Origin: a virus | Lineage: Duplodnaviria; Caudoviricetes | Virus record (IMG/VR): IMGVR_UViG_3300049042_000216 | Location: 1-40,464 of that record | DNA length: 40,464 bases | Direction: 5' to 3' (one strand) | Part shown: piece by piece, positions 4,403 to 37,297 of the stretch | Layout: each line of letters opens with the position of its first letter | How positions within the stretch are numbered: position 1 is the first letter of the stretch | Notes under the pieces: generated by a model | The model's input: only the letters and a program-made list of their open reading frames with translations | Databases searched by the model: none | What the model was told of the DNA's origin: nothing | Position numbers and translations under genes: made by a program

Positions 4403-6868
4403 CTAGGTCAGCGTCACTGATTTCCAAGTTGTTCCGTTGTGAATATGCAGCGTGTTGCTGTTTGTGTTGAAGAACATCGGCACATTGGACCCGGTGACAT
4501 TGGTCGGCGTGCTGGACGGGTTGCTGCTTGATGCCGGGATGTAAACGAACCCATCGCCCATCGACGAGAAGCCGGCAGGCCCAATGAAGTCGCCGCCGTC
4601 CTGTATCCAGGAGGCCTCCTTGATCAGCTTTCCGGTCGAGCCGTCGAACAGCGCGAAGGTGTTGCTGGTGCTGCTGCTTGGGCCCACCACGTCGCCGCTG
4701 CCACCTCCGGTCGCTGCGATGGTGATCGAGCCGGCCCCATTGGTGATCGTGATGCCGGTGCCCGCCGTCAGCGTAGCCTTGTTGAGCGTGCCTCCGGTGG
4801 TGTTGCCGATGAGGATCTGGCCATTGGTAAACGAGTTGCTTTGCCCAGTGCCGCCGTTGATCACACCGAGCGTGCCCGTGATCCCGCTTGAAAGCGAGAT
4901 CAGCGGAAGGTCGACGCCCTGAATCGTGGACATGACCACGTTGCTGCCGTCGCCTCGGAGGTACTGACCATTGGTTGCCGACCCTGCAAGATTTGTGATG
5001 GCCGCGGAAGCAGTGGTCGCTCCGGTGCCGCCATTGGCGATGGCCAGAGTGCCGGTCATCGTCACCGAGCCCGATGTGGTGATCGGTCCTCCGGTGAATG
5101 ACATCCCGGTGGTTCCGCCGTTCACGCCCACCGACGACACGCTCGCGCCCGACGTCATGCTGTCCAGCTTGGCCGCGTAGGTGCTGGTCATGTAGCCGTT
5201 CTGCGTGCTGCTCGCCGCGTTCTGGCTGATGACTGGCGTGGTGCTGCCTGTAGCCACGCTGATGTTTGCACCGCCCGAGGCCGACACATTGGTCACCGTA
5301 CCGGTGTTGCTGGTGTAGCCTGCCGGGTTGCTTGCTGCGTAGGCCCCGAGGTTGGTGAGTGCGCCCGCAGCCGTGGTGGCCCCGGTGCCGCCCTTGTTGA
5401 TGGGCAGCGTGCTGGTGATCGTACCGGCGGAGCCCAGCACGTCGATGTTCCACGTGCCGGTCGCCCCGGTGCCATCCAAGGCCGGAATGTCGGTGCCGAT
5501 GGCTAGGCCGAGGTTTGTGCGGGCTCCCGATGCCGACGTAGCGCCAGTGCCTCCGGAGGCCACAACCAGTGTGCCGGTCATCGACAGTGTGCCAGCGGAT
5601 GTCACAGGGCCGCCTGTGAAGCTGAACCCGCTGGTTCCGCCGTCGGCATTGACGCTCGTCACACTGCCAGATGCCACCGCAGCATTCAGCGTGGAGCCGG
5701 ACATGGACAGGTTGGTGCCGAGCGTGATCTCGCCCAGGGCAGTGCCCGAGGCATTCGATCCGATCAACTTCGCCACCGCGGAGGCCGCCTGCATCTTAGC
5801 GTAGGTCACCGCGTTGTTGGCAATGGTAGCCGCAAATGACCCTGTGCCAGTGCCTGTCACATCCCCGGTGAGCGTGATGGTCTGGTCGCCGGTGTTGCTG
5901 CCCGAGAGGTTTGACCCTGTGACATTGCCTGTCGCAGCCACCAAGGTCGGCGTGATGGCGCCCAAAGCCAGACTGATGGCCGGGGTGGTCGTCGGGTTGG
6001 TGACCGTGCCGCTGACGCCGTTGGCCGTGGTGACCGAGACCGAGGTGACCGTTCCACCATTGCTCGTGTAGTTGTTGGGATTCGACGCAGGATAGGCGCC
6101 CAGGCTTGTCAGGGCCCCGGCCTCGGTGGTTGCACCTGTTCCGCCCGAGGCAACGGCTAGGACGCCGCCCAGCGTGATGGTGCCGCTGCTGGTGATGGGC
6201 CCGCCCGAGGTGGTCAGGCCTGTCGTGCCGCCCGAGACGTTGACGCTTGTGACGCCGCCGCCGGTAGGTCCCGGAGGGCCGGAAGGCCCGGTGGGTCCAG
6301 CAGGCCCCTGGGGACCTTGCAGACCGCCGGCACCGAGGGGCTTGGTGGCTCCGGTGTCGAGCCGGGTGATCTCCAGCGTGGTGTAGATCTCGGGCTGCCC
6401 GATATTAGAGGCAATGCCAAGGCCGTCTGCATGGCCGCCGCGCTCGCAGTAGTACTCCAGCCGGTAGACGTTGTCCTTGTGCGGCGTGATGCGCAAATTC
6501 AGGGACACTTCCATGTCCACGCCGTTGTTGATGTAGAGCGATGGGCCGTACCCGATGACCACCGAGTTGGTCACGTCGTAGATCCGCAGCCTAGTTCCGC
6601 GGGTGAAGTGGAACGGTGCCAGCACCTTCACCTGGTAATCGCCGGCAGCCACCTTCCACTCATTGGACGCAAGGTCGATGATCAGGCCATTCGGATCGCT
6701 GCTGATGGTGTTGAGCGTCCGGGTTGTCCACACAGCAGTCACCGCGGTTCCGCCTGCGACGTTGTTGTTCTTCACGTCCTGCAGCACCGCGATCTTCAGG
6801 GTCAGGCTGTCGACGTCCTTCCTCAACTTGTTGATGAGGATCGTGCTGGTCTGGCTATCGTAGCTCAT
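4403..6868 (-). CDS. tail fibre protein with short collagen-like segment
   Basis: GxY run (GLQGPQGPAGPTGPSGPPGPTG), repeated GGTGAT units, G/T/S-rich, ends IHNGTTWKS. Confidence 0.85.
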   Translation of the reverse strand: MSYDSQTSTILINKLRKDVDSLTLKIAVLQDVKNNNVAGGTAVTAVWTTRTLNTISSDPNGLIIDLASNEWKVAAGDYQVKVLAPFHFTRGTRLRIYDVTNSVVIGYGPSLYINNGVDMEVSLNLRITPHKDNVYRLEYYCERGGHADGLGIASNIGQPEIYTTLEITRLDTGATKPLGAGGLQGPQGPAGPTGPSGPPGPTGGGVTSVNVSGGTTGLTTSGGPITSSGTITLGGVLAVASGGTGATTEAGALTSLGAYPASNPNNYTSNGGTVTSVSVTTANGVSGTVTNPTTTPAISLALGAITPTLVAATGNVTGSNLSGSNTGDQTITLTGDVTGTGTGSFAATIANNAVTYAKMQAASAVAKLIGSNASGTALGEITLGTNLSMSGSTLNAAVASGSVTSVNADGGTSGFSFTGGPVTSAGTLSMTGTLVVASGGTGATSASGARTNLGLAIGTDIPALDGTGATGTWNIDVLGSAGTITSTLPINKGGTGATTAAGALTNLGAYAASNPAGYTSNTGTVTNVSASGGANISVATGSTTPVISQNAASSTQNGYMTSTYAAKLDSMTSGASVSSVGVNGGTTGMSFTGGPITTSGSVTMTGTLAIANGGTGATTASAAITNLAGSATNGQYLRGDGSNVVMSTIQGVDLPLISLSSGITGTLGVINGGTGQSNSFTNGQILIGNTTGGTLNKATLTAGTGITITNGAGSITIAATGGGSGDVVGPSSSTSNTFALFDGSTGKLIKEASWIQDGGDFIGPAGFSSMGDGFVYIPASSSNPSSTPTNVTGSNVPMFFNTNSNTLHIHNGTTWKSVTLT

Positions 6869-9800
6869 TGCTTGGCCTTACGTCGGAGGATTCTCTGCGC
6901 CTCGTCAAGGCTGCTGGCGATGCCTATCAGGCTTCCTGCGGGGCCGTAGAGGCGAAGGGAGCCTTTGGCCTTACCCGGGAGCGCACGGTAGCCCCCGGTG
7001 AATGTGTAGGCACCGGGCATAGCGGAGTCGGGGGAGGGCATATACCGGAAGTCCTGAGGCTTGCCGTACACCGGGTCCTTTACAAACACCGTGTTGCCGA
7101 CGCTGAAAGACTCGGAGCCACCAGTGACGGGCTGATCGGTGCGCTTGTCGTAGAAGTAGGAGTGCTTTTTTGGGTCCATTCCAACCGGGGTCCACGTTTC
7201 AATATCCGATGGGATTGACCTGTCTTTGATTAGCCTTCCTTCAACTGTAGCAATCGGATGTTTTGCAGCCCTACCTTCCTTGATCGCAACCGCACCCAGT
7301 TTGGATTCCTCGCTTCCTTCTTTTACGAAGAATCTTACCGGACCAGAAAGGCGGACATTGGTGTCGTAGCCAATCCTGTCGCCTACATTTCCGGGGGTTG
7401 CAGGTTCGTGAATCGTTTGAACATATGTGCCCCTGTTCAGGAATGCAGGGATGTCGATGCGGACGCCAACAGGAGATCCTTCTGGAAGCGATTCGTGTTC
7501 ACGCCAGAACGGCTGCTTTGATGAAGATAGGGCAGCTTTAGCTTTTTCCTCGGTAGGCGGGTTGGCGAAGTCAAGGTTGCGACCCACCTCACGCTGGATG
7601 CCGGCGGGCATATAGCGCTGGGCGCCTACTTCGCCCTGGGGCGTGGTAGCCTCATCCGCAGCACGTCCCTCGGTCCAAGTCCATTCGGGCATAAGCCCGG
7701 TTTTCTGATCAGCAAATACGGTGTCCTCTGTCTTAGCGGTGCGGTTGCGCTCGCCGTAGGGACCGTAGTTCAGCCAACTGTTTTGACCTCGAGTCTCAGT
7801 GGTGATGGCGCCACGAGCAGGCCCCGTGAAGAGTCGAATGTGCGCCTGCCAGGCGTTCTCCTCGCCCTGAGCCCGAAAACCGGAACCCTCAATGCCGTGA
7901 CCGAAAGCGTCATGCACGGCGCGGAATAGGTCGTTGGCATAAACGGTTCTCAATTCACCGTTGGGTCCACCGAACGGCCAACGCAAACCAGTCTCGGCAA
8001 GCATTGGGTTGGAATCTGGATTGAAGTCCTCCTTGGTTCCAAACCCAGAGTCTGTTGGGAAAACTCCCATCGACTTGTTTGCGCGGAGGTCGCGCATGGC
8101 GTTGAACGGAGATGATGCGTACTGCTGCCCCGCATCCGAATTAATATCAATAAACCAGAACTTGTATCCCGCTGAATCAAGTGCTCGATACTGATCCGTG
8201 GTTTGACGGATCAGGTCCTGGTAGGCCTCGCGCACCGCAGGATCTTGCGGTGCATGAGGCATCTCATCGTAAGCCTGAGCAATCCTGCGGGCACGGTCCT
8301 CGTCTACCTCAACGTATTCTGATTGGCGACGGAGATTGATTCCGTTGTCCTTGGCGTACTGCTCTGCGACGCCAACCAAGCTCTGGTCTGGGCCACTAGC
8401 GCCTTTGACCTGTGGAGCGCCTGCAAGCGGCGCAAGGTTCCCAGACGAATACCGTCCTTCTCCTCGGTCTCCACGTCTTCCTGATTGTTCTGCGGTTTGT
8501 TCATAAAGTTTTTCTCCTCCGGCAGGCATGAAATACGCTAGACGAGAAGGTGAGTCAATTTGCCTTCTCTTCCATTTCTCACCTGCCTCCGGCGTGGTTC
8601 CATATCCGGCTGCCTTGTTGGCTTTTTGCGCTTCACCCAACTGGCGGTCATTCAGGGCCGGTAGTTTTTCAAGACCAGGGAACATCACCTCATGCGGTTC
8701 AACACGTCCCCGAATGCGATCCCACAGGGTCCATTGAGCCGGGAAGACAGCAACACCAAGTTCGTTCGCCCGGCGCTCGTTAATCTCAAGTGCTGAACGG
8801 TAGGAATCCGACATGACCTGGAAGTCCTTGGGAGTTTCCACCCAATCGACCGATTTGATGTATTCCGGGGCATTCGGGTTGATCCCACCCTTCTTCGCAA
8901 GAAGCGTTGCCTTGCGGCTTCCCATGGCAGCAAACACGGCCTCGTTGACGAACTTTTGAACACGGTCTGCACCGTAGATCTGTGCTTGTCCTAGGACGTC
9001 ATCAATGGTTTTCGCCCGGGTTGCCGTTGGGTCTGGTAGCGAATCCAAGGTAGATGCCATTTCAGCCTTGATGCTCTTGATGCGTTTATCGTTTTTGGCC
9101 TTTAGCTTCTTGAGTGTTTGCTCATCGTTTTTGTTGAGCTCTACAATCCGTTTTCCTTTTTCCTCGGCATTTTTCAGGCGGCGATTGAATGCCGACGTGG
9201 CTTCCTTGGACTTCTTGAGCATTGAGTTGAAACGGTCGACAACAATGCCTTCAAACCGTTTGCGCAACTCCGGGTTACCCAGCAACTCCTGGCCAAAGAT
9301 GCGGGCCATGTGGCGGTCCATGGCCGAGATGGATGCCTTGAGCGGATCTTGCCACACAGATCCAAATGAGCCTGTCTTGGTGCCAAACCCTTTGACTTGA
9401 GTTGTCAGCTTGTCGACGAAGTCTGCCCAGGATTCGTTGGCCTTCTTGACGAAGAAGTCTGGGTTCTTGGTGAACAACCGAGCGGCATTTACGATGTTCG
9501 AGATGTCTGCGGTGATCGCAATACCAAGGCCGCCCTTGCCTGCGGAGATGAACCCTAACTCCTTTTTCAGTCGTTGGTTCAGCTCCTTCAGATTTTCTTT
9601 GGTCGGGTTCTCTGGGTATAGATCTGCAAACTTGCGCACATCTTCCATCGAACCGAATCGGAGTCTGGACTGCCCCATTTCATTGGGCAGCAGCGGTGCG
9701 TTTGGTGAGAGCATACCAAACACAATCGAGTTAAAACTTGAGACCTTCTCCCCAGGTGTCGGGGCCATGGTTGACGCCAGCTTTGCCGTCAGTTTGGCGT

Positions 9801-12800
9801 GCGTCGTCTCAGGAAGGTTTGCTACGTCGACTGGGTTGGCTTTAAGCCAGAGGAGGTCGTAGTACGTGAACTTGCCCTCAAGGCCGCCGGGTATTCTCGC
9901 AGGATTTCCAGCCACGTCCGAGGGGATGTTTGCGATTTCTGAAAGAGGTCCAAGGTTTGGGACGCCGAATGCTTTGCCGTATTCCTCAAACTCCGTTGGA
10001 GTCCAGTCTTTCGGTTCTTTGCCTTTGAAGAATATGTTGCCGCTTTCATCTCTTGTAACTCCCTGAGCCTCAAAGGATGCACGTCGTGGCAAAGATTCTG
10101 CAACCTGTTTTCTAGCTGCGTCCTCTTCAGCCGGCATGAACCTCACATCCCCCTCTTGTCGAACCGCCCCGCCTTGGCCTTGGCCTTCTTGGCCACCGAC
10201 AGCGCGATTGCGACCGCCTGCTTCTGCGGTTTGCCGGACTTCATCTCGCGCCGGATATTGCTGCTTACGGACTTCTGGCTGTAGCCTTGTTTGAGTGGCA
10301 TAATCTTTTTCTGCTTTGAGTTTTGCTTGTCCTTCGGTGTCGAAGATCCCGGCGGTTGATCCATCGGGGCCATACAGGCGGAACTTCCCGCCCTTCGACA
10401 AGATCCGGTAGCCGCCCACCAGGTCGCTCTGGACGCTGGTCTCACCAACCTGCTCGGCAGGCTGGAAGTTGAGCTGCGTGCGGCGGTAGCTTGACTGCTC
10501 TCCCATGTCACCGGACCACGGGATTTCCGTGCCGGTGGTGTTGGTGTTCTGGATGCGCTCAATGCGCAGGTCCTGGTAGACCGACCCGCCCTTGCGGCTG
10601 GCCTCGTAGCCAGCGGTCGGCAGGTTGATCATAGTGTCGCCCTTCTTGGGAACGGCGCCCATCACCTCGTTGAAGAAGTTGCGCTTCTTGGCGCCTTCAA
10701 TACCGCCACCGAGAGCCTCAGCGGAAGGCGCGGCGTTCTGCTCCGCAATGTTCTTCAGGTACACGTCCTTCAGCGTGGACATGGCCTGGTCGTAGTTGCC
10801 GAACAGGTTCTTGTAGGCGGGCTTGGTCAGGGCCTTGTACATCCGGGCCTGCACCTTGCCCCAGTCGACAGCCTTGATGTTCACACCACCCTTGCTGTTG
10901 ATCGAGATCCCGTAGGGCAGGAACAGCTTCTCGGACTCTCCGAACACGCCAGACTTGCCCGTGGAACCGTAAACCTTCCAGTACCTTCCCTCCATCAGCG
11001 TGCCGTCGCGGATGGCTGTGGCGATGTCGATCAGGCTGCGCGATGTGGACGGGCTGAAGATACCGCTCTTCGATACTGCATCAGCCTCGGCAAGGCTCAG
11101 TCGGCCTTCGATGATCGGGTTACCCTTGGCATCAAGCCCGCTGACGCTGCCACGCTCGTTCTGGGGCACCGTCTCGATGACCTGCATCGTGCGGTTGGCC
11201 ACGTTTGCGGTCTTGGCGGCTAGCTCTGCCTTTGAGAGCGGTCGGATAATGCTGCCATCCGGACCCGTCATAAACAGGTCCGAGTAGCCACGGGCCATGA
11301 TGACAGCATTCTGCTGCGCCTGCGTCATCTTGTTGATGTCCACCTTCTGCTCGGTAGGCTCGTAGCCTTCCTTGGGAGTCACCAGGTTCTTGATGGCATC
11401 TTCCATCCAGTCGAGCTTGATGCGCCGTCCGTTGGCATCGTAGAAGGTACGGGCAACAGGGTCGAAACCAGCCTGCAATGCACGCCGAGTGAAACGCTCC
11501 GAGACAGCCTCCTTGGCGTTGTTCAAGGCCATCTCAATGAACGAAGGAATCCGACCCGGCAGCATCGTCTTCGGGTCTTTGCCTTTGAGCATTTCCTGCG
11601 TGTAGTACGCGGAGAACTCATCGGTGATGCGCTTGAGAGCTTCGACCTGCTGTGCGCGTTGGAGATTCGGGTCAAACGAGTCGCGCAATTCGGTGCGTAC
11701 ACGGTCGGCAATAACACGCCCACCACTCGCTTCAATCTTGTCAGCGTAACGATTGGCGAAGTCGGAGAACTGCTGTTTGAAAGCGGGATCGGTTGAAGCC
11801 GCATCAATCACTCGTCCACCAAGCTGACTGACCATGTCCTGCGTAATACGTGCGTGCAGGATCTCGTGCGGAATAGCTTCAGGTTTCGCACGGTCGACAT
11901 TGATCAGGATCGTCGGCTTGCCGCTCTTGATGTTGTCGGGACCGATTGCAACACCGGCATAGTTCACCGTCTGCAGAGCAGCAGGAACCGTGTCTGCGTC
12001 GGTGTGGAAGATGACATCGACGCCAGCACCTTCAGCACCGGCAACCTCGGACAGAGCCTTGGTGAGCTGCTTGTTGTTGAGACTGGCGTACAGTTGAGCG
12101 CGAGCATCGGCATCCTTGATCGTCGCAGTCTGCTCACCGGCCACTGGGTCAACGTAGGTGAACTGCACCTCGGTAGGCCGAGTGTTCAGGTCATCGACCG
12201 CGGTCTGTCGGACACGTCGGCCATTGAAGACGTTTGCCTCAACGGCTTTTCCAAGCCTAAATCCGCCATCAAAAACACCAAATGCAGCGCCACTACCAAT
12301 AGCGGCTGAAATTGCGTCTGCCTCCTCTCCGCTCATTGCCGCAAGCAATCCACCACCAGCGGCAGCGCCTGTCATTGGAACAAGGATATTTGCGGCCAGC
12401 TTGACTGGTGTTTCAAGTCCGCTTCTTGCAAGAGCGGTTCCTAGCGCACGAGCTTTTGAAGAAGCGCCTTCAGCAGCAGCAATGCGTTCCCCTGCGCCTA
12501 GAAGGCCGCGCTGGACAGGAGTAAGCGCGGGACCACGTGATGCCGCACCGGCCTCTCCAACGGTCTCCATGGTGGCTCCTAGGCCTTTGGTTGCACCAAT
12601 TACTTGTGATGCAGTTCCTAGGACAGGAACATTCATCGTAATTGGAATGCCGGCAGCTTCACCAACTGCAATCGTGGTCGTCCCTTTGGAGACGCCCTCC
12701 TGCACAGCCTGACCCATCTGCGGAGATCCGGTGACTTTAGCGGTGAGGCTTCCAGCCAAATTCTCAGGAACACGCCCAAGCTGACTTACACGTTCTCCTG

Positions 12801-13578
12801 CCCCCCTAAGCATTTCGGCTGCACGCGGAATCTGAGCAACAGCTTGTTGAGCCATTACGGAAGCCAGCTTTCCACCTCCGGCAAATGCAATGGATGACGG
12901 GTCAGCAAGGAATCCACCGACCTCAAGGCCAGCCTGACCAATGGCTTCCTGCGGAATGTTGTAGGTTTGCAGGAACTCTTGAGAAGCTGGAACGCGCTGA
13001 TCTTGAGGTGCATTGGCTAGCGCCAATTTTCGATCAATGTCTGCTTTCTCAAGAAAGTCTACATACTTGATGTCATCAAGCATGGATTCCATACGAGCGC
13101 GATCCTCTTTGCTTTGGATGAGAAGAGGAAGTTGATCGAGTTTGTCTACTATGGAAGCTGAGATTCCTCGGTATAGGCTTTGAGCCTTCAGCTTTGCTTG
13201 AATCGCTGTTTCGGCAAAAGTTGCTGCGGCAACGTCGCCCTTAGTGGCTCCTTCAGGAGGCTGATAAATGTCGCCAATGGATTCTCCAAGCCTGTACGGA
13301 AGCGCTGCAATGTGGGCAAGTCCCGGTCCAATTGCAGCGGCGGCTCCCTTCAGGTCGATTGACTTTTCCTTTCCAACCTTCAGGTAGTCGAGGAACTCCT
13401 GCTTGCTCGGAGTGTAGTCGGTCTGCGCTGCCTTGTACTGCAGCACCTTATTGTAGGAGTCCTCTGGGGTGGGATCAACCTCGATGCCTCCCTGCACAAA
13501 ACCGCCTTGCGCCATTGGAGGCGCGGCCTGTTGCTGCGGCTCTGCGTCGACAACAATTCCGCCTTCAACGAATGGCAT
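6865..13578 (-). CDS. giant internal virion / ejection protein, large polyvalent-protein type (2237 aa)
   Basis: Third of three ejection-like genes; HEILH and HDAFGH metal-binding motifs; HhH-like module; recurring FMP/YMP junctions. Confidence 0.75.
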   Translation of the reverse strand: MPFVEGGIVVDAEPQQQAAPPMAQGGFVQGGIEVDPTPEDSYNKVLQYKAAQTDYTPSKQEFLDYLKVGKEKSIDLKGAAAAIGPGLAHIAALPYRLGESIGDIYQPPEGATKGDVAAATFAETAIQAKLKAQSLYRGISASIVDKLDQLPLLIQSKEDRARMESMLDDIKYVDFLEKADIDRKLALANAPQDQRVPASQEFLQTYNIPQEAIGQAGLEVGGFLADPSSIAFAGGGKLASVMAQQAVAQIPRAAEMLRGAGERVSQLGRVPENLAGSLTAKVTGSPQMGQAVQEGVSKGTTTIAVGEAAGIPITMNVPVLGTASQVIGATKGLGATMETVGEAGAASRGPALTPVQRGLLGAGERIAAAEGASSKARALGTALARSGLETPVKLAANILVPMTGAAAGGGLLAAMSGEEADAISAAIGSGAAFGVFDGGFRLGKAVEANVFNGRRVRQTAVDDLNTRPTEVQFTYVDPVAGEQTATIKDADARAQLYASLNNKQLTKALSEVAGAEGAGVDVIFHTDADTVPAALQTVNYAGVAIGPDNIKSGKPTILINVDRAKPEAIPHEILHARITQDMVSQLGGRVIDAASTDPAFKQQFSDFANRYADKIEASGGRVIADRVRTELRDSFDPNLQRAQQVEALKRITDEFSAYYTQEMLKGKDPKTMLPGRIPSFIEMALNNAKEAVSERFTRRALQAGFDPVARTFYDANGRRIKLDWMEDAIKNLVTPKEGYEPTEQKVDINKMTQAQQNAVIMARGYSDLFMTGPDGSIIRPLSKAELAAKTANVANRTMQVIETVPQNERGSVSGLDAKGNPIIEGRLSLAEADAVSKSGIFSPSTSRSLIDIATAIRDGTLMEGRYWKVYGSTGKSGVFGESEKLFLPYGISINSKGGVNIKAVDWGKVQARMYKALTKPAYKNLFGNYDQAMSTLKDVYLKNIAEQNAAPSAEALGGGIEGAKKRNFFNEVMGAVPKKGDTMINLPTAGYEASRKGGSVYQDLRIERIQNTNTTGTEIPWSGDMGEQSSYRRTQLNFQPAEQVGETSVQSDLVGGYRILSKGGKFRLYGPDGSTAGIFDTEGQAKLKAEKDYATQTRLQPEVRKQQYPARDEVRQTAEAGGRNRAVGGQEGQGQGGAVRQEGDVRFMPAEEDAARKQVAESLPRRASFEAQGVTRDESGNIFFKGKEPKDWTPTEFEEYGKAFGVPNLGPLSEIANIPSDVAGNPARIPGGLEGKFTYYDLLWLKANPVDVANLPETTHAKLTAKLASTMAPTPGEKVSSFNSIVFGMLSPNAPLLPNEMGQSRLRFGSMEDVRKFADLYPENPTKENLKELNQRLKKELGFISAGKGGLGIAITADISNIVNAARLFTKNPDFFVKKANESWADFVDKLTTQVKGFGTKTGSFGSVWQDPLKASISAMDRHMARIFGQELLGNPELRKRFEGIVVDRFNSMLKKSKEATSAFNRRLKNAEEKGKRIVELNKNDEQTLKKLKAKNDKRIKSIKAEMASTLDSLPDPTATRAKTIDDVLGQAQIYGADRVQKFVNEAVFAAMGSRKATLLAKKGGINPNAPEYIKSVDWVETPKDFQVMSDSYRSALEINERRANELGVAVFPAQWTLWDRIRGRVEPHEVMFPGLEKLPALNDRQLGEAQKANKAAGYGTTPEAGEKWKRRQIDSPSRLAYFMPAGGEKLYEQTAEQSGRRGDRGEGRYSSGNLAPLAGAPQVKGASGPDQSLVGVAEQYAKDNGINLRRQSEYVEVDEDRARRIAQAYDEMPHAPQDPAVREAYQDLIRQTTDQYRALDSAGYKFWFIDINSDAGQQYASSPFNAMRDLRANKSMGVFPTDSGFGTKEDFNPDSNPMLAETGLRWPFGGPNGELRTVYANDLFRAVHDAFGHGIEGSGFRAQGEENAWQAHIRLFTGPARGAITTETRGQNSWLNYGPYGERNRTAKTEDTVFADQKTGLMPEWTWTEGRAADEATTPQGEVGAQRYMPAGIQREVGRNLDFANPPTEEKAKAALSSSKQPFWREHESLPEGSPVGVRIDIPAFLNRGTYVQTIHEPATPGNVGDRIGYDTNVRLSGPVRFFVKEGSEESKLGAVAIKEGRAAKHPIATVEGRLIKDRSIPSDIETWTPVGMDPKKHSYFYDKRTDQPVTGGSESFSVGNTVFVKDPVYGKPQDFRYMPSPDSAMPGAYTFTGGYRALPGKAKGSLRLYGPAGSLIGIASSLDEAQRILRRKAKQ
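8304..8504 (-). CDS. candidate nested out-of-frame gene (66 aa)
   Basis: GGAGGAG 9 nt upstream of ATG, inside a low-complexity linker of the giant ORF. Confidence 0.4.
   Translation of the reverse strand: MNKPQNNQEDVETEEKDGIRLGTLRRLQALHRSKALVAQTRAWLASQSSTPRTTESISVANQNTLR
10143..10301 (-). CDS. nested small basic phage protein (52 aa) in alternate frame
   Basis: MPLKQGYSQKSVSSNIRREMKSGKPQKQAVAIALSVAKKAK resembles a small protein I recall as a standalone gene in other phages. Confidence 0.7.
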   Translation of the reverse strand: MPLKQGYSQKSVSSNIRREMKSGKPQKQAVAIALSVAKKAKAKAGRFDKRGM

Positions 13579-32852: not shown

Positions 32853-34831
32853 GCCATTTCCGACGAGGTCAAGACCACTTTCATGTAGCCTCGCGTCTGC
32901 TGTTGTTGACCGTCACTGCGGTGAATGTGGTTCGACGGGATGGCCTGGTGGATCTCCAGCATGAGTTCCGCTGCCCTACGCTGGAAGCGTTTCTCCGGTT
33001 CAGGCCCCCATTCCTTGTTGTTGCACATCGTCATGTAGGCAGCATACAGCTCCTCGCTTGTGATACTATCCGACGACATACTGCTTGCCCGGATGTGATT
33101 GACTACAAAGTATCTCACACTGTCGCTTTCGCTCAACAAGTTGTCTATCATAGCCCGCTGCCTCTCGGTAACCGGGAACGGCCTGCCGGCCTGCATGACC
33201 CTGCACAAGTCCTCCGCGCCCTCCAGAAACCAGTTCAATATCCCACTACCCTCCCGCTCTATCATCACATCGTGATAATTCGGGATCACCTTCTCCGGCT
33301 TGGGCTGGCTGAAGTCGAGCAGCAGCAACCGCCGGGACCACGCCCCCAAGTCTCCCTGCACGTTCACCTTGAGCCGGCTATTGGCCGTCACGATCACGTT
33401 CCAGTCGCCCACCACGGCCTTGGCACCGCTCTTCCCCTTGAACTCCACAGCCAGCCTGTCGCCGCCGGTCAGCGCCTTGAGGAACTGGCTCTCCTCGCAG
33501 TTCAGGAAGTCCGGCGGCACATCGCTGCCGATCAGCAGCGTCCGATCATGGAAGTTTCCCAGCTCGAACCGGCTGCCCAGGTGATTCGTTCTGAGCTCGC
33601 TGCAGTTCTCATCCCCGACCAGTCTCCTGACCAATCCCGCCACCGTTGACTTCCCGCCACCGCCCGTTCCCGTCAGCAGCAGGATCACCTGCGGCCTGTT
33701 CCGCTGCAGCAGCGCCAGTCCGCCCCATCTCTGCAGCAGCACCTGATCCTCCCGCTCGGGCAGCGCATGATCCAGGAATGCCTGCCACATCCCGCTGCCG
33801 GCGCCCTGCACGTACCGCACCGGCGTCTGGTTCCTTGACATCCACTCCGGGCCGAACCCGTGCATGGCATATGGCACGCTCCTCAGGTCCACCATCACAT
33901 TGCTGCAGTGCACCACGCTGTCGGGCCGTGAGAACGGATTGCGCTCGACCTGCAGCGCCCCGATCAGGTCGACCACCTGATCCGCAAAGCTCACTGTCAG
34001 CCGCGTCAGGAGCGCCGGCAGCCGCGGATCCTCTGTCGATGCCATCTGATCCAACAGAACGCGCCTTGCGGTCTCCAGGACGCGCTGCTGCATCTCCTCG
34101 CGGCTCATGGATATCCAGATCCCCCTGTCCGCGGCATACCAATAGTGCTGCCCGGTCTGGGCATCAAAGAGCAGCCGCTCCTTGTGCGCCATGTACCCGG
34201 CAAAGAATGTCGGGTGTAAATTACCCGTCCCGCTCCTCCCGAACGTCCACGGCACCCCATGCAGCCGGAGCAACTGCGCCATCTCATCCCTGCTGCCCGG
34301 CACCGGCCAGCCCTCGGGCCACCGGATCTGGCTGAACTCCAACGCCACCGGCGGCCTGTCCACCAGCACGCTGTACTCGCACCCGCTCGGGTGCACGCCC
34401 TTGACCGTGCTCAGGTTCCCGGTGCTCCGCCACTCGTAGAGCGGCTTGCCCATCACCCGCCCATTGACCTCGACCATCTCCGTGGTACTCCGCTCCGCGC
34501 ACGGCTTGGGGTAGGCCCCCGTGATCCTGACGCCCACCTGTGCGCCCCTTTTACCCTTCCACCTCGCACTGCCCTGCAGCACCGGGTTCACCTTCAGGAA
34601 CGCCTCCAAACTCCCCTCATCATCGAAGTCAATCGCGCACAGCCCGCCGGAGAACTCCCCCAGCCTCACCGCCACGTTCCCGTGCTCCAGCATGACCCGG
34701 TACACATCCCTCTTGGTACTCTCCATGGTCTCCTGGGTGTACTTGACCATCGGAATCTTGGTCCCCGGGCTCTGCGGCACCAGGAACAGCGGTTCGCCTA
34801 GCCAGGCCTCGATCTCTTGCGTCGTCATCAT
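32849..34831 (-). CDS. primase-polymerase / SF3 (D5/P4-type) helicase fusion
   Basis: GNVAVRLG..AIDFD prim-pol motif; Walker A GTGGGGKST; KALTGGD; TAN; AWSRR. Confidence 0.88.
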   Translation of the reverse strand: MMTTQEIEAWLGEPLFLVPQSPGTKIPMVKYTQETMESTKRDVYRVMLEHGNVAVRLGEFSGGLCAIDFDDEGSLEAFLKVNPVLQGSARWKGKRGAQVGVRITGAYPKPCAERSTTEMVEVNGRVMGKPLYEWRSTGNLSTVKGVHPSGCEYSVLVDRPPVALEFSQIRWPEGWPVPGSRDEMAQLLRLHGVPWTFGRSGTGNLHPTFFAGYMAHKERLLFDAQTGQHYWYAADRGIWISMSREEMQQRVLETARRVLLDQMASTEDPRLPALLTRLTVSFADQVVDLIGALQVERNPFSRPDSVVHCSNVMVDLRSVPYAMHGFGPEWMSRNQTPVRYVQGAGSGMWQAFLDHALPEREDQVLLQRWGGLALLQRNRPQVILLLTGTGGGGKSTVAGLVRRLVGDENCSELRTNHLGSRFELGNFHDRTLLIGSDVPPDFLNCEESQFLKALTGGDRLAVEFKGKSGAKAVVGDWNVIVTANSRLKVNVQGDLGAWSRRLLLLDFSQPKPEKVIPNYHDVMIEREGSGILNWFLEGAEDLCRVMQAGRPFPVTERQRAMIDNLLSESDSVRYFVVNHIRASSMSSDSITSEELYAAYMTMCNNKEWGPEPEKRFQRRAAELMLEIHQAIPSNHIHRSDGQQQQTRGYMKVVLTSSEMA

Positions 34832-36030
34832 AGCAGTTCCTTGATCAGCACTCGGAAGGCCCGTTCTGCGGTGGCTGGCACAACTCCATTCCCGAGCAGT
34901 CGGAGCTCGTCCGTTCGATTGTCACAGGTGACGCACAGCTCGGCATAGTCCATCCCACCGGCAGCCCCATCAGCGTCTCCACCCAGCGCGGGTTGAGTTT
35001 GCCTTGAGTCTGATTGCTCAGACCAACCTGACGGCAGTTGTCGCTCCTCCTGTCGCTCGCATCCGGCGTTGCCCAGCTCTTCACCTGCTGGTCCAGCTTG
35101 TCGATCATGCTCCCGTCTTTCTGCCTGTGCGCTCCAGTCGAAACGGTGGCTGTCTGCCAACTCTTCTCCACTACATGGACCTGAGTCGTTAGCTGTGTCG
35201 CCCTCTCCAATGGCCTTCCGCTGGTTGTCGCTGTCATCCCGCAAGCACCGCTCTTTGGTGTCATCCAGAGTCTGCCTTCCTGAGACAACCCTTGGCGGCT
35301 CCCATCCGTACTGCTGCTCGCCGGGACGGGATGGCCATGCTTCACGACCACCGTGCTGAGTGATTCCTGACTGCCTTTCATACCTCGACTCCTGTCCTGA
35401 AAGCCCTGCCGGGCTTCGCTGGCTTGAACTGTTGGCCAGTAGCACAAACGTCCCGAGGGGGGGGGTGTTCGATTGAGCTGAGACTTGCCTTGCGAGTTCT
35501 TGGCTTCGTTCGCTGTCATTGTGGGCCAGGATGAAGACCCGCTTTCTCTGGTGTGGCGCTCCGCATTCAGACGCGCTGAATATGCCCCACGTCGTTCTGT
35601 AACCCATTCCAGCCAGGTCTTCGATGACGTCGGACAGCCCCAGGCTGATATGTCCTTCGACGTTTTCAAAGAAGCAGCACCGGGGTCTGAGAAGTCGAAT
35701 GCCGTCTGCGATGTAGGGCCACAGGTGCCTCGGGTCGTCTTTGCCTCGGCGTTGCCCGGCTGCACTGAACGGTTGGCAGGGGTAACCACCAGTGAGGATG
35801 TCCACTCGGTCGCGAAACGCTGCCCAAGGGAAGGTCTTAAGATCCGGCCATATAGGTGCTGGGTCCATGAGTCCCGCTTCCATTTTGCTGACCAGGTTCG
35901 CAATGGCGAAGGCTTCGATCTCACAAAGAGCGACCGTGCGCATATTTCCGATTGCTCGGTGCAACCCAAGCTCAATGCCTCCGTATCCAGCGCACAGGCC
36001 GATGTGTGTAACTGCTTTGGAAGTATCCAT
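34828..36030 (-). CDS. C5 cytosine DNA methyltransferase, catalytic (alpha-like) chain
   Basis: Motif I LCAGYGG, IV GYPCQPFS, VI FENV, VIII HQRKRVF, X LGNGV; motif IX absent. Confidence 0.9.
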   Translation of the reverse strand: MDTSKAVTHIGLCAGYGGIELGLHRAIGNMRTVALCEIEAFAIANLVSKMEAGLMDPAPIWPDLKTFPWAAFRDRVDILTGGYPCQPFSAAGQRRGKDDPRHLWPYIADGIRLLRPRCCFFENVEGHISLGLSDVIEDLAGMGYRTTWGIFSASECGAPHQRKRVFILAHNDSERSQELARQVSAQSNTPPLGTFVLLANSSSQRSPAGLSGQESRYERQSGITQHGGREAWPSRPGEQQYGWEPPRVVSGRQTLDDTKERCLRDDSDNQRKAIGEGDTANDSGPCSGEELADSHRFDWSAQAERREHDRQAGPAGEELGNAGCERQEERQLPSGWSEQSDSRQTQPALGGDADGAAGGMDYAELCVTCDNRTDELRLLGNGVVPATAERAFRVLIKELL

Positions 36031-36035
36031 GTCAT
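34845..36035 (-). CDS. overlapping-frame methyltransferase partner (beta-like chain)
   Basis: 396 codons open; five W-x-T repeats; LNPRWVETLMGLPVGWT motif IX; ATG coupled to helicase stop. Confidence 0.75.
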   Translation of the reverse strand: MTWILPKQLHTSACALDTEALSLGCTEQSEICARSLFVRSKPSPLRTWSAKWKRDSWTQHLYGRILRPSLGQRFATEWTSSLVVTPANRSVQPGNAEAKTTRGTCGPTSQTAFDFSDPGAASLKTSKDISAWGCPTSSKTWLEWVTERRGAYSARLNAERHTRESGSSSWPTMTANEAKNSQGKSQLNRTPPPSGRLCYWPTVQASEARQGFQDRSRGMKGSQESLSTVVVKHGHPVPASSSTDGSRQGLSQEGRLWMTPKSGACGMTATTSGRPLERATQLTTQVHVVEKSWQTATVSTGAHRQKDGSMIDKLDQQVKSWATPDASDRRSDNCRQVGLSNQTQGKLNPRWVETLMGLPVGWTMPSCASPVTIERTSSDCSGMELCQPPQNGPSEC

Positions 36036-37297
36036 TCCGCCCTCCTCTCAAATGCCAACGCCTCCTCCGATATAAACCATCCCTTCGGCCACTCGGTCAG
36101 GTAGATTCCGCCTAGTGTCCGCACCCGGCTCAGGGCCACGTAGGCCTGCCCGGGCTCACGGGCCGCCCTGATGTCAATCCTCGCGGCATCCAGGGTCAGT
36201 CCCTGCGCCCGGTGTATTGTCATCGCGTAGGCCAATCGGAGCGGGTATTGTTGGACGGTTACCCCCAGCGACTCAAAGAACCATTTGCGCCGGCCCAGTG
36301 AAATCTTTGCCCCGCGGCTCTCGACCAAGATGTCGCTGCCCCGGAACTCCACCACTCGGCCCACCTGCCCGTTGTAGAATCCCTGCTCCGCATCATTAGC
36401 TGTGAACATGACCGCTGCTCCGGGCTTCAACTGCAGCACCCGCGGCGTGCTCATGTTCTTGGTGGCAAACTCCACCGCCTGATCCACGCCCTTGACCTCG
36501 GCATCGAACACGGCAATCGGGCCATCAATGCTGCTCAAGCGGTAGTTGTTCCACTTGTCCACCTGCACGTTGTGCGTCATCAGCCGGGTGATGTGCTCCG
36601 GCGGGTTCATCTTCAGCGCACTACGCAGCAACTGGTTGTCCCGCGGCTTCATCCTACCCACCCGGAACCCACTCAGCATCTCAATGAACGGCACATCATT
36701 CTGCCGCCGCACCTTCTCCAGCTTGATCGTCTTGAAGTCGGCCTCCTCCCAGGCCTTGCTCAGGAACGCCCAGTCGTATGGCTTGCTCTGGTCTGTCCTG
36801 ACCGGTGGCAACTGCAGGAAGTCGCCCAGGAAGATCACCTGTAACCCGCCAAAGGGCCGGCTGTCTTCTCTGATCCGCTGCACCCAGTAGTTCAGGAAGT
36901 CGAGGTGCCGGCCCGCCATCATGCTGATCTCGTCGACCACGAGCACCTCGGTGCCCCGCACGCGCTTGCGGGCGCCATGGATCGACGGCTGCTCCTCCAG
37001 CCGCTCGGCAGCCTGCAGGAAGTCCTCGCCATCCTGCGGCCCCAACTGCATCCCGCACCAGCGGTGCACGGTGGTCCCGCCCACATTCAGCGCTGCAATA
37101 CCTGTCGGGGCCGTGATGGCCACGTCCCGAACTCCTTCTACCCTGCTCAGGAACTCCCGCAGCAGCGTGCTCTTGCCGGTGCCCGCCTGCCCCGTGAGGA
37201 AGACGTTCCCGAACGATGTTGCCCAGACCATGAAACGGTCCTCGGGCGTCGGATCGAAGTCGTCCCCGATCACATGGACAGACGGGCTGGCAATCAT
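36032..37297 (-). CDS. PIF1/RecD-like SF1B helicase
   Basis: GQAGTGKS, APTGIAA, VDEISM, GDFLQLPPV, YAMTIHRAQG, YVALSR. Confidence 0.92.
   Translation of the reverse strand: MIASPSVHVIGDDFDPTPEDRFMVWATSFGNVFLTGQAGTGKSTLLREFLSRVEGVRDVAITAPTGIAALNVGGTTVHRWCGMQLGPQDGEDFLQAAERLEEQPSIHGARKRVRGTEVLVVDEISMMAGRHLDFLNYWVQRIREDSRPFGGLQVIFLGDFLQLPPVRTDQSKPYDWAFLSKAWEEADFKTIKLEKVRRQNDVPFIEMLSGFRVGRMKPRDNQLLRSALKMNPPEHITRLMTHNVQVDKWNNYRLSSIDGPIAVFDAEVKGVDQAVEFATKNMSTPRVLQLKPGAAVMFTANDAEQGFYNGQVGRVVEFRGSDILVESRGAKISLGRRKWFFESLGVTVQQYPLRLAYAMTIHRAQGLTLDAARIDIRAAREPGQAYVALSRVRTLGGIYLTEWPKGWFISEEALAFERRAE

Follow-up and report, generated by a model that had tools for sequence, protein, structure and literature searches.

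A recurring tag bounds exchangeable cargo modules in a giant phage polyvalent protein with a zincin-like core and is a candidate cleavage site

Phage polyvalent proteins were defined in 2017, together with the prediction that their embedded peptidases release the accompanying domains (Iyer 2017, PMC5512222); in the same account the P1 protein DdrB, a virion protein bearing a metallopeptidase (MPTase) domain, is described as proteolytically processed. For the zincins of phi24B gp47 (bioRxiv 10.64898/2026.04.10.717836) and phi14:2 gp65 (bioRxiv 10.1101/2020.03.07.982082), a role in peptidoglycan attack or in activation has been proposed. The present work concerns IMG/VR record IMGVR_UViG_3300049042_000216 (the window, that is, the whole stretch of DNA analysed), a complete 40,464-bp phage record bearing direct terminal repeats, and in it the gene at 6865..13578 (minus strand, as are all features below), which encodes a giant polyvalent protein of 2237 amino acids (aa). 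The constant core of this protein, which contains a zincin-like domain, ends in a conserved four-residue tag, and internal copies of the tag bound a series of cargo modules that are swapped between relatives. We propose that the tag is the cut signal of the zincin in a self-processing polyprotein and doubles as a recombination joint, a reading to which we assign a probability of about 0.55.

The five tags are NFQP (tag 0, aa 1037, 10459..10470), RFMP (tag 1, aa 1146, 10132..10143), YFMP (tag 2, aa 1682, 8524..8535) and two copies of RYMP (tag 3, aa 1988, 7606..7617; tag 4, aa 2178, 7036..7047). A first-pass annotation of the window had pointed to this motif at boundaries between unrelated-looking domains, and its coordinates for the open reading frame (ORF), all five tags and the HEILH motif (11854-11868) were correct. 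Within the single protein, composition predicts 0.016 copies of [RY][FY]MP, and the 14 other patterns among the 15 best of equal degeneracy likewise give 4-5 copies; as a statistic from one sequence with a pattern picked afterwards, this is weak. The reality of the tag is settled instead by the homologues, because they confine it to the variable part. When the core was used as query, 70 proteins matched, 68 with identities of 55-94%, and HExxH stands at the same place in all 70; exclusion of two distant matches and inclusion of the window left a close set of 69. Over these 69 proteins the 70,699 core residues contain no [FY]MP and the 63,454 residues past the core contain 235 copies, and 4,653 of 8,000 BLAST alignment ends (58%, from pairs that are not independent) lie within 15 aa of a tag, compared with 11% of positions. 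The 38 other ORFs scanned, 10,131 aa in all, have a single copy of [FY][MQ]P. The suggestion that the cargo is marked by AT-rich composition did not survive: it holds only against 10340-11500, with a guanine-plus-cytosine (GC) content of 0.606, to which the modules compare at 0.525, 0.571 and 0.537. The rest of the constant core has a GC content of 0.553, and composition therefore does not set the modules apart.

The modules are exchanged precisely at the tag. In the DNA-level junction set, consisting of the window and 29 loci (L001-L029), 61 pairs with a common upstream module are alike through ATG CC and divergent after it, and 61 pairs with a common downstream module are alike from ATG CC onward (97 unique junctions, the pairs again not being independent). 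Since the alignments switch at ATG CC in both sets, the exchange is placed by these comparisons within the Met-Pro codons of the tag (ATGCC), and only about five bases are nearly invariant at the junctions. Assembled contigs from two sequencing runs, one of them possibly the source of the window, join 7035 to 7606, skipping cargo module 3 (570 nt) exactly and in frame; the joint has nine bases in common and a short side of 30 letters. Two further contig joints, of 558 and 2,524 nt, were left unused, their short side having just 21 letters. At the level of sequence, this comparison of homologues demonstrates the swap function of the tag, and the earlier proposal that it serves as an insertion point for interchangeable modules is thereby upheld; the 'anti-host' role then given to the cargo is an inference from the cargo classes found in relatives. 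Because each module must start and finish in the tag, the tag codons provide in-frame microhomology of 5-11 bases. The ORFs scanned include no recognised site-specific recombinase, and for this reason we infer microhomology recombination as the route of exchange. The tag codons themselves vary synonymously over 76 contexts, Arg being CGC, CGG, AGG, CGA or AGA and Pro being CCC (26), CCT (21), CCG (21) or CCA (6). As the codons vary in this way, the constraint would lie on the peptide, which points to selection on the tag peptide. It is also seen in L001-L029 that Asn and Tyr codons ahead of the tag ATG end in T (TAT 16/20, AAT 9/9).

The tag is not restricted to the close family. A cluster-representative search gave 81 matches to the wider core family with identity down to 22%, from which a profile alignment was made. 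At the core end it reads N-[FYW]-x-P, with N in 76 of 82 rows, F, Y or W in 78 of 82 and P in 77 of 80, in relatives down to about 22% identity; therefore the first tag is, as judged from this alignment, the conserved end of the core. The 69 close members have NFQP (45), NFMP (22) or NWQP (2) there, and the internal tags resemble copies of this core-end tag. Past the core of 54 distant HExxH+E relatives, [RKN][FYW][MLQS]P, a pattern picked once the data had been seen, occurs 90 times in 45,676 residues versus 9 times in 56,726 core residues, that is, at 1.97 versus 0.16 per 1000 aa, a 12-fold higher density. Ten EExxH+E relatives have six copies in 6,016 residues past the core and one in 10,895 core residues. 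The third tag residue in the distant family is Q (56), S (21), M (19) or L (9), and the internal residue equals that of the core end in 65 of 117 cases versus 37.8 +/- 5.4 in shuffles. Three lineages with core-end N[FY]KP have [FY]KP internally, and independent pairs on a tree of 53 proteins lean the same way (K 3/3, S about 4:0, Q 3.8:1.0, M/L 1.4:0.5).

The core starts with a constant Gly/Ala-rich region (aa 1-479, 12142..13578) containing one mildly hydrophobic stretch at aa 394-416. There follow a predicted zincin metallopeptidase-like domain at about aa 480-737 (11368..12141) and a predicted WYL-like (SH3/Sm) barrel at about aa 784-1036 (10471..11229). The model of aa 480-1045 accordingly comprises two domains, with a predicted local distance difference test score (pLDDT) of 83.6 and a predicted template modelling score (pTM) of 0.62. 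Model and alignment together give the zincin-like domain an HExxH helix, a Glu ligand downstream and a three-stranded sheet ahead, and it weakly matches zincin folds (LF-type, PPEP, ArdC, PprI and CapP), at Z 4.2-6.2. The metal motif HEILH spans aa 571-575 (11854..11868), and the predicted third ligand is E654 (11617-11619). E572 is present in 73 of 73 rows of the profile alignment, H575 in 72 of 73 and E654 in 73 of 74; these residues and the fold matches bear out a zincin in the N-terminal part, which had been suggested from the motif. The active-site residues and the core-end tag thus appear among the best-kept columns of the core. Position 571 is H in 62 of 73 rows and E in 10, and EExxH stands for HExxH, with the third ligand kept, in P0076, P0100, P0107, P0124, P0125, P0129, P0130, P0135, P0139 and P0141.

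The nine best fold matches of the barrel domain are all WYL proteins (CapW, BrxR, PafBC, DriD), at Z 6.6-7.6 and with root-mean-square deviations (rmsd) of 2.1-4.4 over 81-98 residues; these Z values are under the caution line of 8. The Pfam WYL family (PF13280) yielded no candidate in the window genome, and 9 of 14 control genomes were positive. Because the Z values are middling and the Pfam family is without a match, we name the barrel WYL-like only. Its conserved residues in the profile alignment, R966, R1005, R1008 and Y940, are compatible with putative nucleic-acid binding. It is worth noting that the zincins CapP and IrrE/PprI are activated by single-stranded DNA (ssDNA), which the WYL sensors CapW and BrxR also sense (PMC13228613); that the zincin here is likewise activated by nucleic acid would be a guess by analogy. 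The core matched no family in Pfam or PHROGs, and neither the core model nor that of module 1 matched the PDB in Foldseek at E <= 0.001, sequence searches of the PDB being without a useful match as well. Against viral models, the core matches proteins with LPD and ART-PolyVal names, with E down to 1e-18. This agreement, and the PolyVal-type cargo of relatives, substantiate the earlier assignment to the polyvalent-protein class.

Cargo 1 (aa 1147-1682, 8533..10140), between tags 1 and 2, is predicted to have an HhH-GPD (helix-hairpin-helix)/OGG-type DNA glycosylase fold with a coiled-coil insert. In the model this tag-bounded segment folds as one unit (pLDDT 93) and matches T. maritima OGG (3n0u; Z 12.9, rmsd 3.1, 194/209 residues) and human OGG1 (Z 9.3), which accords with the HhH-glycosylase-like module first suspected. 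The HhH lysine K1401 and the downstream aspartate D1421, which we take to be catalytic, are invariant in 50 rows. Cargo 2 (aa 1683-1988, 7615..8532; phrog_3170) carries an HDxxGH...GEE domain, with HDAFGH at 7897-7914, and is likely a metal-dependent enzyme, judging from its motifs: HDxxGH is kept in 115 of the 120 listed homologues (322 found) and is never HE among these 115, whereas an HExxxH-type MPTase would have HE. Its Atlas matches are viral clusters without a name. Cargo 3 (aa 1989-2178, 7045..7614) has weak matches to Phage_L5_gp82 and phrog_586, and an Atlas search with it gave no usable match.

The first mini-domain (10297..10458) resembles the constant terminal mini-domain (aa 2179-2237, 6868..7044), with a pairwise BLAST match of 34 columns. 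In the close family the constant core starts every protein, the first mini-domain with its linker forms a separate tag-bounded unit in 66 of 69, and the terminal mini-domain, a separate unit of 55-64 residues, is the last module in 66 of 69. Both mini-domains, each an R-L-Y-G-P-x-G hairpin plus helix, flank the cargo array, and many distant relatives have a similar end; a packaging or ejection handle is a possible role for them. Loose clustering of the tag-cut segments gives 26 module clusters in 49 architectures; stricter clustering with a degenerate RNMP tag gives 42 and 58, many of the extra clusters being length variants of one ART module. Sixteen different clusters come next after tag 1, in the first cargo slot, and in P0156-P0161 an ART module stands after tag 2 instead. 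A domain scan of 18 close or near and 27 distant proteins named ART-PolyVal, PBECR5, GNAT, DUF7178, a ParB-C-like PHROG, LPD23, LPD37 and a methyltransferase among the cargo of relatives; the window's own modules matched none of the Pfam families ART-PolyVal, PBECR5, GNAT, LPD23 and LPD37. Several alternative first-slot modules (P0009, P0014, P0034, P0058) match DUF7178 and bear HhH-glycosylase-like words. The first slot may favour cargo of the DNA glycosylase type.

Homologues of cargo 1 and 2 also occur as short proteins and in other giant proteins, with the junction words YFSK, RFSR and LFSR. In cargo 1 homologues the L-A-Y-F end is native and change is confined to what comes after it. The short homologues (P0164-P0232) close with Y-F-[S/T/G], then a hydrophobic tail rich in Gly and Ala and then acidic residues, and this ending may be a shared packaging or processing signal.

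A second gene is nested in the first linker: 52 codons in the +1 frame (10143..10301) encode a basic protein (phrog_2423, E 1.8e-20). Of 30 sequences, 29 have it intact, and in the remaining one the locus is cut off. Over its first 45 codons it is 86% conserved versus 66% for the host frame, and most of the changes fall on third positions of its own codons. The gene stops 2 nt ahead of the Phe codon of tag 1; because of this stop codon, the Arg of tag 1 is AGG in all 16 junctions of the most frequent upstream class. Comparable +1 ORFs lie under linkers of other modules (L005, L007, L015). A 66-codon +1 ORF at 8304-8504, under the low-complexity start of cargo 2, is not claimed as a gene: it has no PHROG match and differs among relatives.

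The giant gene closes a run of virion genes and stands directly ahead of a tail-fibre-like gene. The genome encodes a terminase, a head-tail adaptor, an SU10-type capsid protein, tail-fibre-like genes, a primase, a helicase and a methylase; a C5 cytosine methylase is found beside a Pif1/Dda-like helicase at 34828-37297. Neither a DNA polymerase nor a head protease was recognised among the genome ORFs scanned. The capsid protein matched 145 phage records, each below 60% identity, the polyprotein core had 0 matches among cultured phages, and a single close-range query of genome contigs found no prophage copy of the core. Sequencing runs that cover most of the window are labelled as freshwater, lake, marine, algae or aquatic metagenomes, and the source is an uncultured freshwater phage.

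From these data we propose a course for the polyprotein in which the tag is read twice, as peptide and as DNA. Its packaging in the virion and ejection with the DNA are likely, because of the gene position and the family. The zincin would then be activated, possibly through binding of nucleic acid by the adjoining WYL-like barrel, and would cut the core-end tag before the internal copies. Early in infection the released modules would have DNA, nucleotides or host proteins as their targets, and recombination at the tag would reassort entire modules with the reading frame and the cut sites preserved. Cleavage is the likely, if putative, function of the tag: its confinement to the variable part, its synonymous codons, its place among the best-kept core columns, the concordance of third residues and the folding of cargo 1 as a unit tip the balance somewhat towards a cut signal. 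In a more far-reaching version, which we consider quite unlikely, the WYL-like barrel would sense phage nucleic acid at ejection and switch on the fused zincin, the tags would be cut and the enzymes released, and the same 12-base element would be both protease code and cloning site of a population-wide cargo library.

However, several observations weigh against cleavage by the zincin. In the core model the core-end tag is of low confidence and undocked. The third-residue concordance was significant in 0 of 4 tests on independent pairs (median p 0.125-1), and 45 of the 69 close members pair a core-end Q with an internal M. The core-end tag is kept where almost nothing stands behind it (2 residues in P0137, 15 in P0133), and some long relatives (P0108, P0126) have few tags. 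None of the cargo-bearing lineages found has a protease that is clearly dead, the ten EExxH variants keeping E, H and the third ligand. Tyr in tags is TAT (16) rather than TAC (4), versus 19 and 183 elsewhere, and CGT is absent, these codons having few independent origins. Finally, N4 virion RNA polymerase (vRNAP), which has an HExxH domain, is packaged unprocessed (PMC5512222), and the purified enzyme, with its HExxH subdomain, showed no degradation (PMC13434306). A predicted complex of core aa 480-1030 and Zn with a 34-residue tag peptide (score 0.01, mark 0.32) weighs neither way.

Some of these points would suit a tag that is bound and left uncut: the barrel, the core or the ejection channel would grip it so that the modules can be packed, unfolded or fed, and the zincin would act on a host target or on peptidoglycan. 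SH3-like barrels bind Pro peptides, and here the tag ends the barrel domain and persists where little comes after; the intact N4 vRNAP and the peptidoglycan or activation roles proposed for the phi24B and phi14:2 zincins fit as well. This account, which leaves unexplained why a tag stands on both sides of each module and why modules exist as separate proteins, strikes us as unlikely but deserving of weight. The codon bias (TAT over TAC, no CGT), the crossovers at ATGCC and the nine bases common at the cargo 3 joint would fit if the tag were a mere recombination scar, a short DNA word for in-frame swaps with the peptide as a by-product. We find that very doubtful, as R/K, the aromatic residue and Pro are kept while synonymous positions vary, the core-end tag is conserved at 22-35% identity, and a site-specific recombinase was not recognised among the ORFs scanned.

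The junction evidence for cutting by the zincin would serve just as well for another enzyme, be it a host protease or a phage maturation protease that escaped recognition. However, each family has its own tag word, which tends to agree with the core-end tag; the ORFs scanned gave no recognisable head protease, and the other ORFs of the genome are without the tag. Such cutting is highly improbable. The first-pass annotation had also allowed for internal restart at the tag Met, giving nested shorter proteins. Met is present in 66 of 76 close-family junction contexts, TAT or AAT stands ahead of the ATG, and a Shine-Dalgarno word is present at just 7 of 22 real starts here, which leaves room for starts without one. 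With so few real starts scoring, the counts of such words at tag ATGs (18 of 78, many of the 78 copying one junction) and at other ATGs (55 of 561) carry no information either way. Yet the position is Q, S, L or K in most distant tags, restart would release no C-terminal product, and the conserved upstream Arg and aromatic residue would be unexplained, which makes this suggestion scarcely credible. The reading that we retain is the tag as the zincin's likely cut signal and as a recombination joint.

Self-processing of phage polyvalent proteins was already predicted in 2017; new here are a barrel of WYL-like fold, a tag at the end of the core, a swap point mapped to the base and a conserved gene nested in the first linker. 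Of these, the barrel, the first tag as the end of the core and the nested gene had escaped the first-pass annotation. The family offers a candidate site, a candidate enzyme with one key residue and at least 26 module types that make up a natural library, through which that prediction becomes directly testable. It also gives a base-level view of how polyvalent proteins diversify, with entire modules exchanged at the tag. If the WYL-like barrel does gate the protease, release of the cargo at infection would have a novel trigger. A compact protease specific for the tag and a cargo slot delivered by the virion are potential tools. Open-licence papers and bioRxiv yielded no account of such junction tags or of a WYL domain in ejection proteins (junction motifs may be shown in the external alignment files of Iyer 2017), and none of a zincin-WYL fusion in a virion protein.

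Compared with known systems, the protein is closest to the class of Iyer 2017, with which it shares large size, a place in the virion gene cluster, HExxH with a downstream Glu, variable PolyVal cargo and predicted self-processing; in keeping with that class, it is a large multidomain protein with family-typical domains in its orthologues. Unlike here, the excerpts of that account name no junction peptide, base-level swap point or WYL-like domain. P1 DdrB is likewise an MPTase-bearing virion protein, for which, as far as its description extends, there is one cut before packaging, no tag array and an enzyme that is not shown. The giant ejection proteins N4 gp50, phi24B gp47 and phi14:2 gp65-67 share the zincin-like motif; repeated tags and swappable cargo are not described in the excerpts of their reports, and N4 gp50 is packaged whole. 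The core model resembles the folds of both the CapP and IrrE/PprI zincins and the CapW/BrxR WYL proteins, but these are described as bacterial regulators with HTH (helix-turn-helix) or GAF domains, in which a separate repressor is cut. Polymorphic toxin cassettes, shufflons and integrons exchange modules at a short fixed sequence. A cassette analogy has also been drawn in the 2017 account (PMC5512222). In contrast to these systems, exchange here takes place inside one reading frame, at several internal points and between phage genomes, with no silent cassettes and with no recombinase recognised among the ORFs scanned; and where a shufflon or integron would have an invariant DNA site, only about five bases are nearly invariant.

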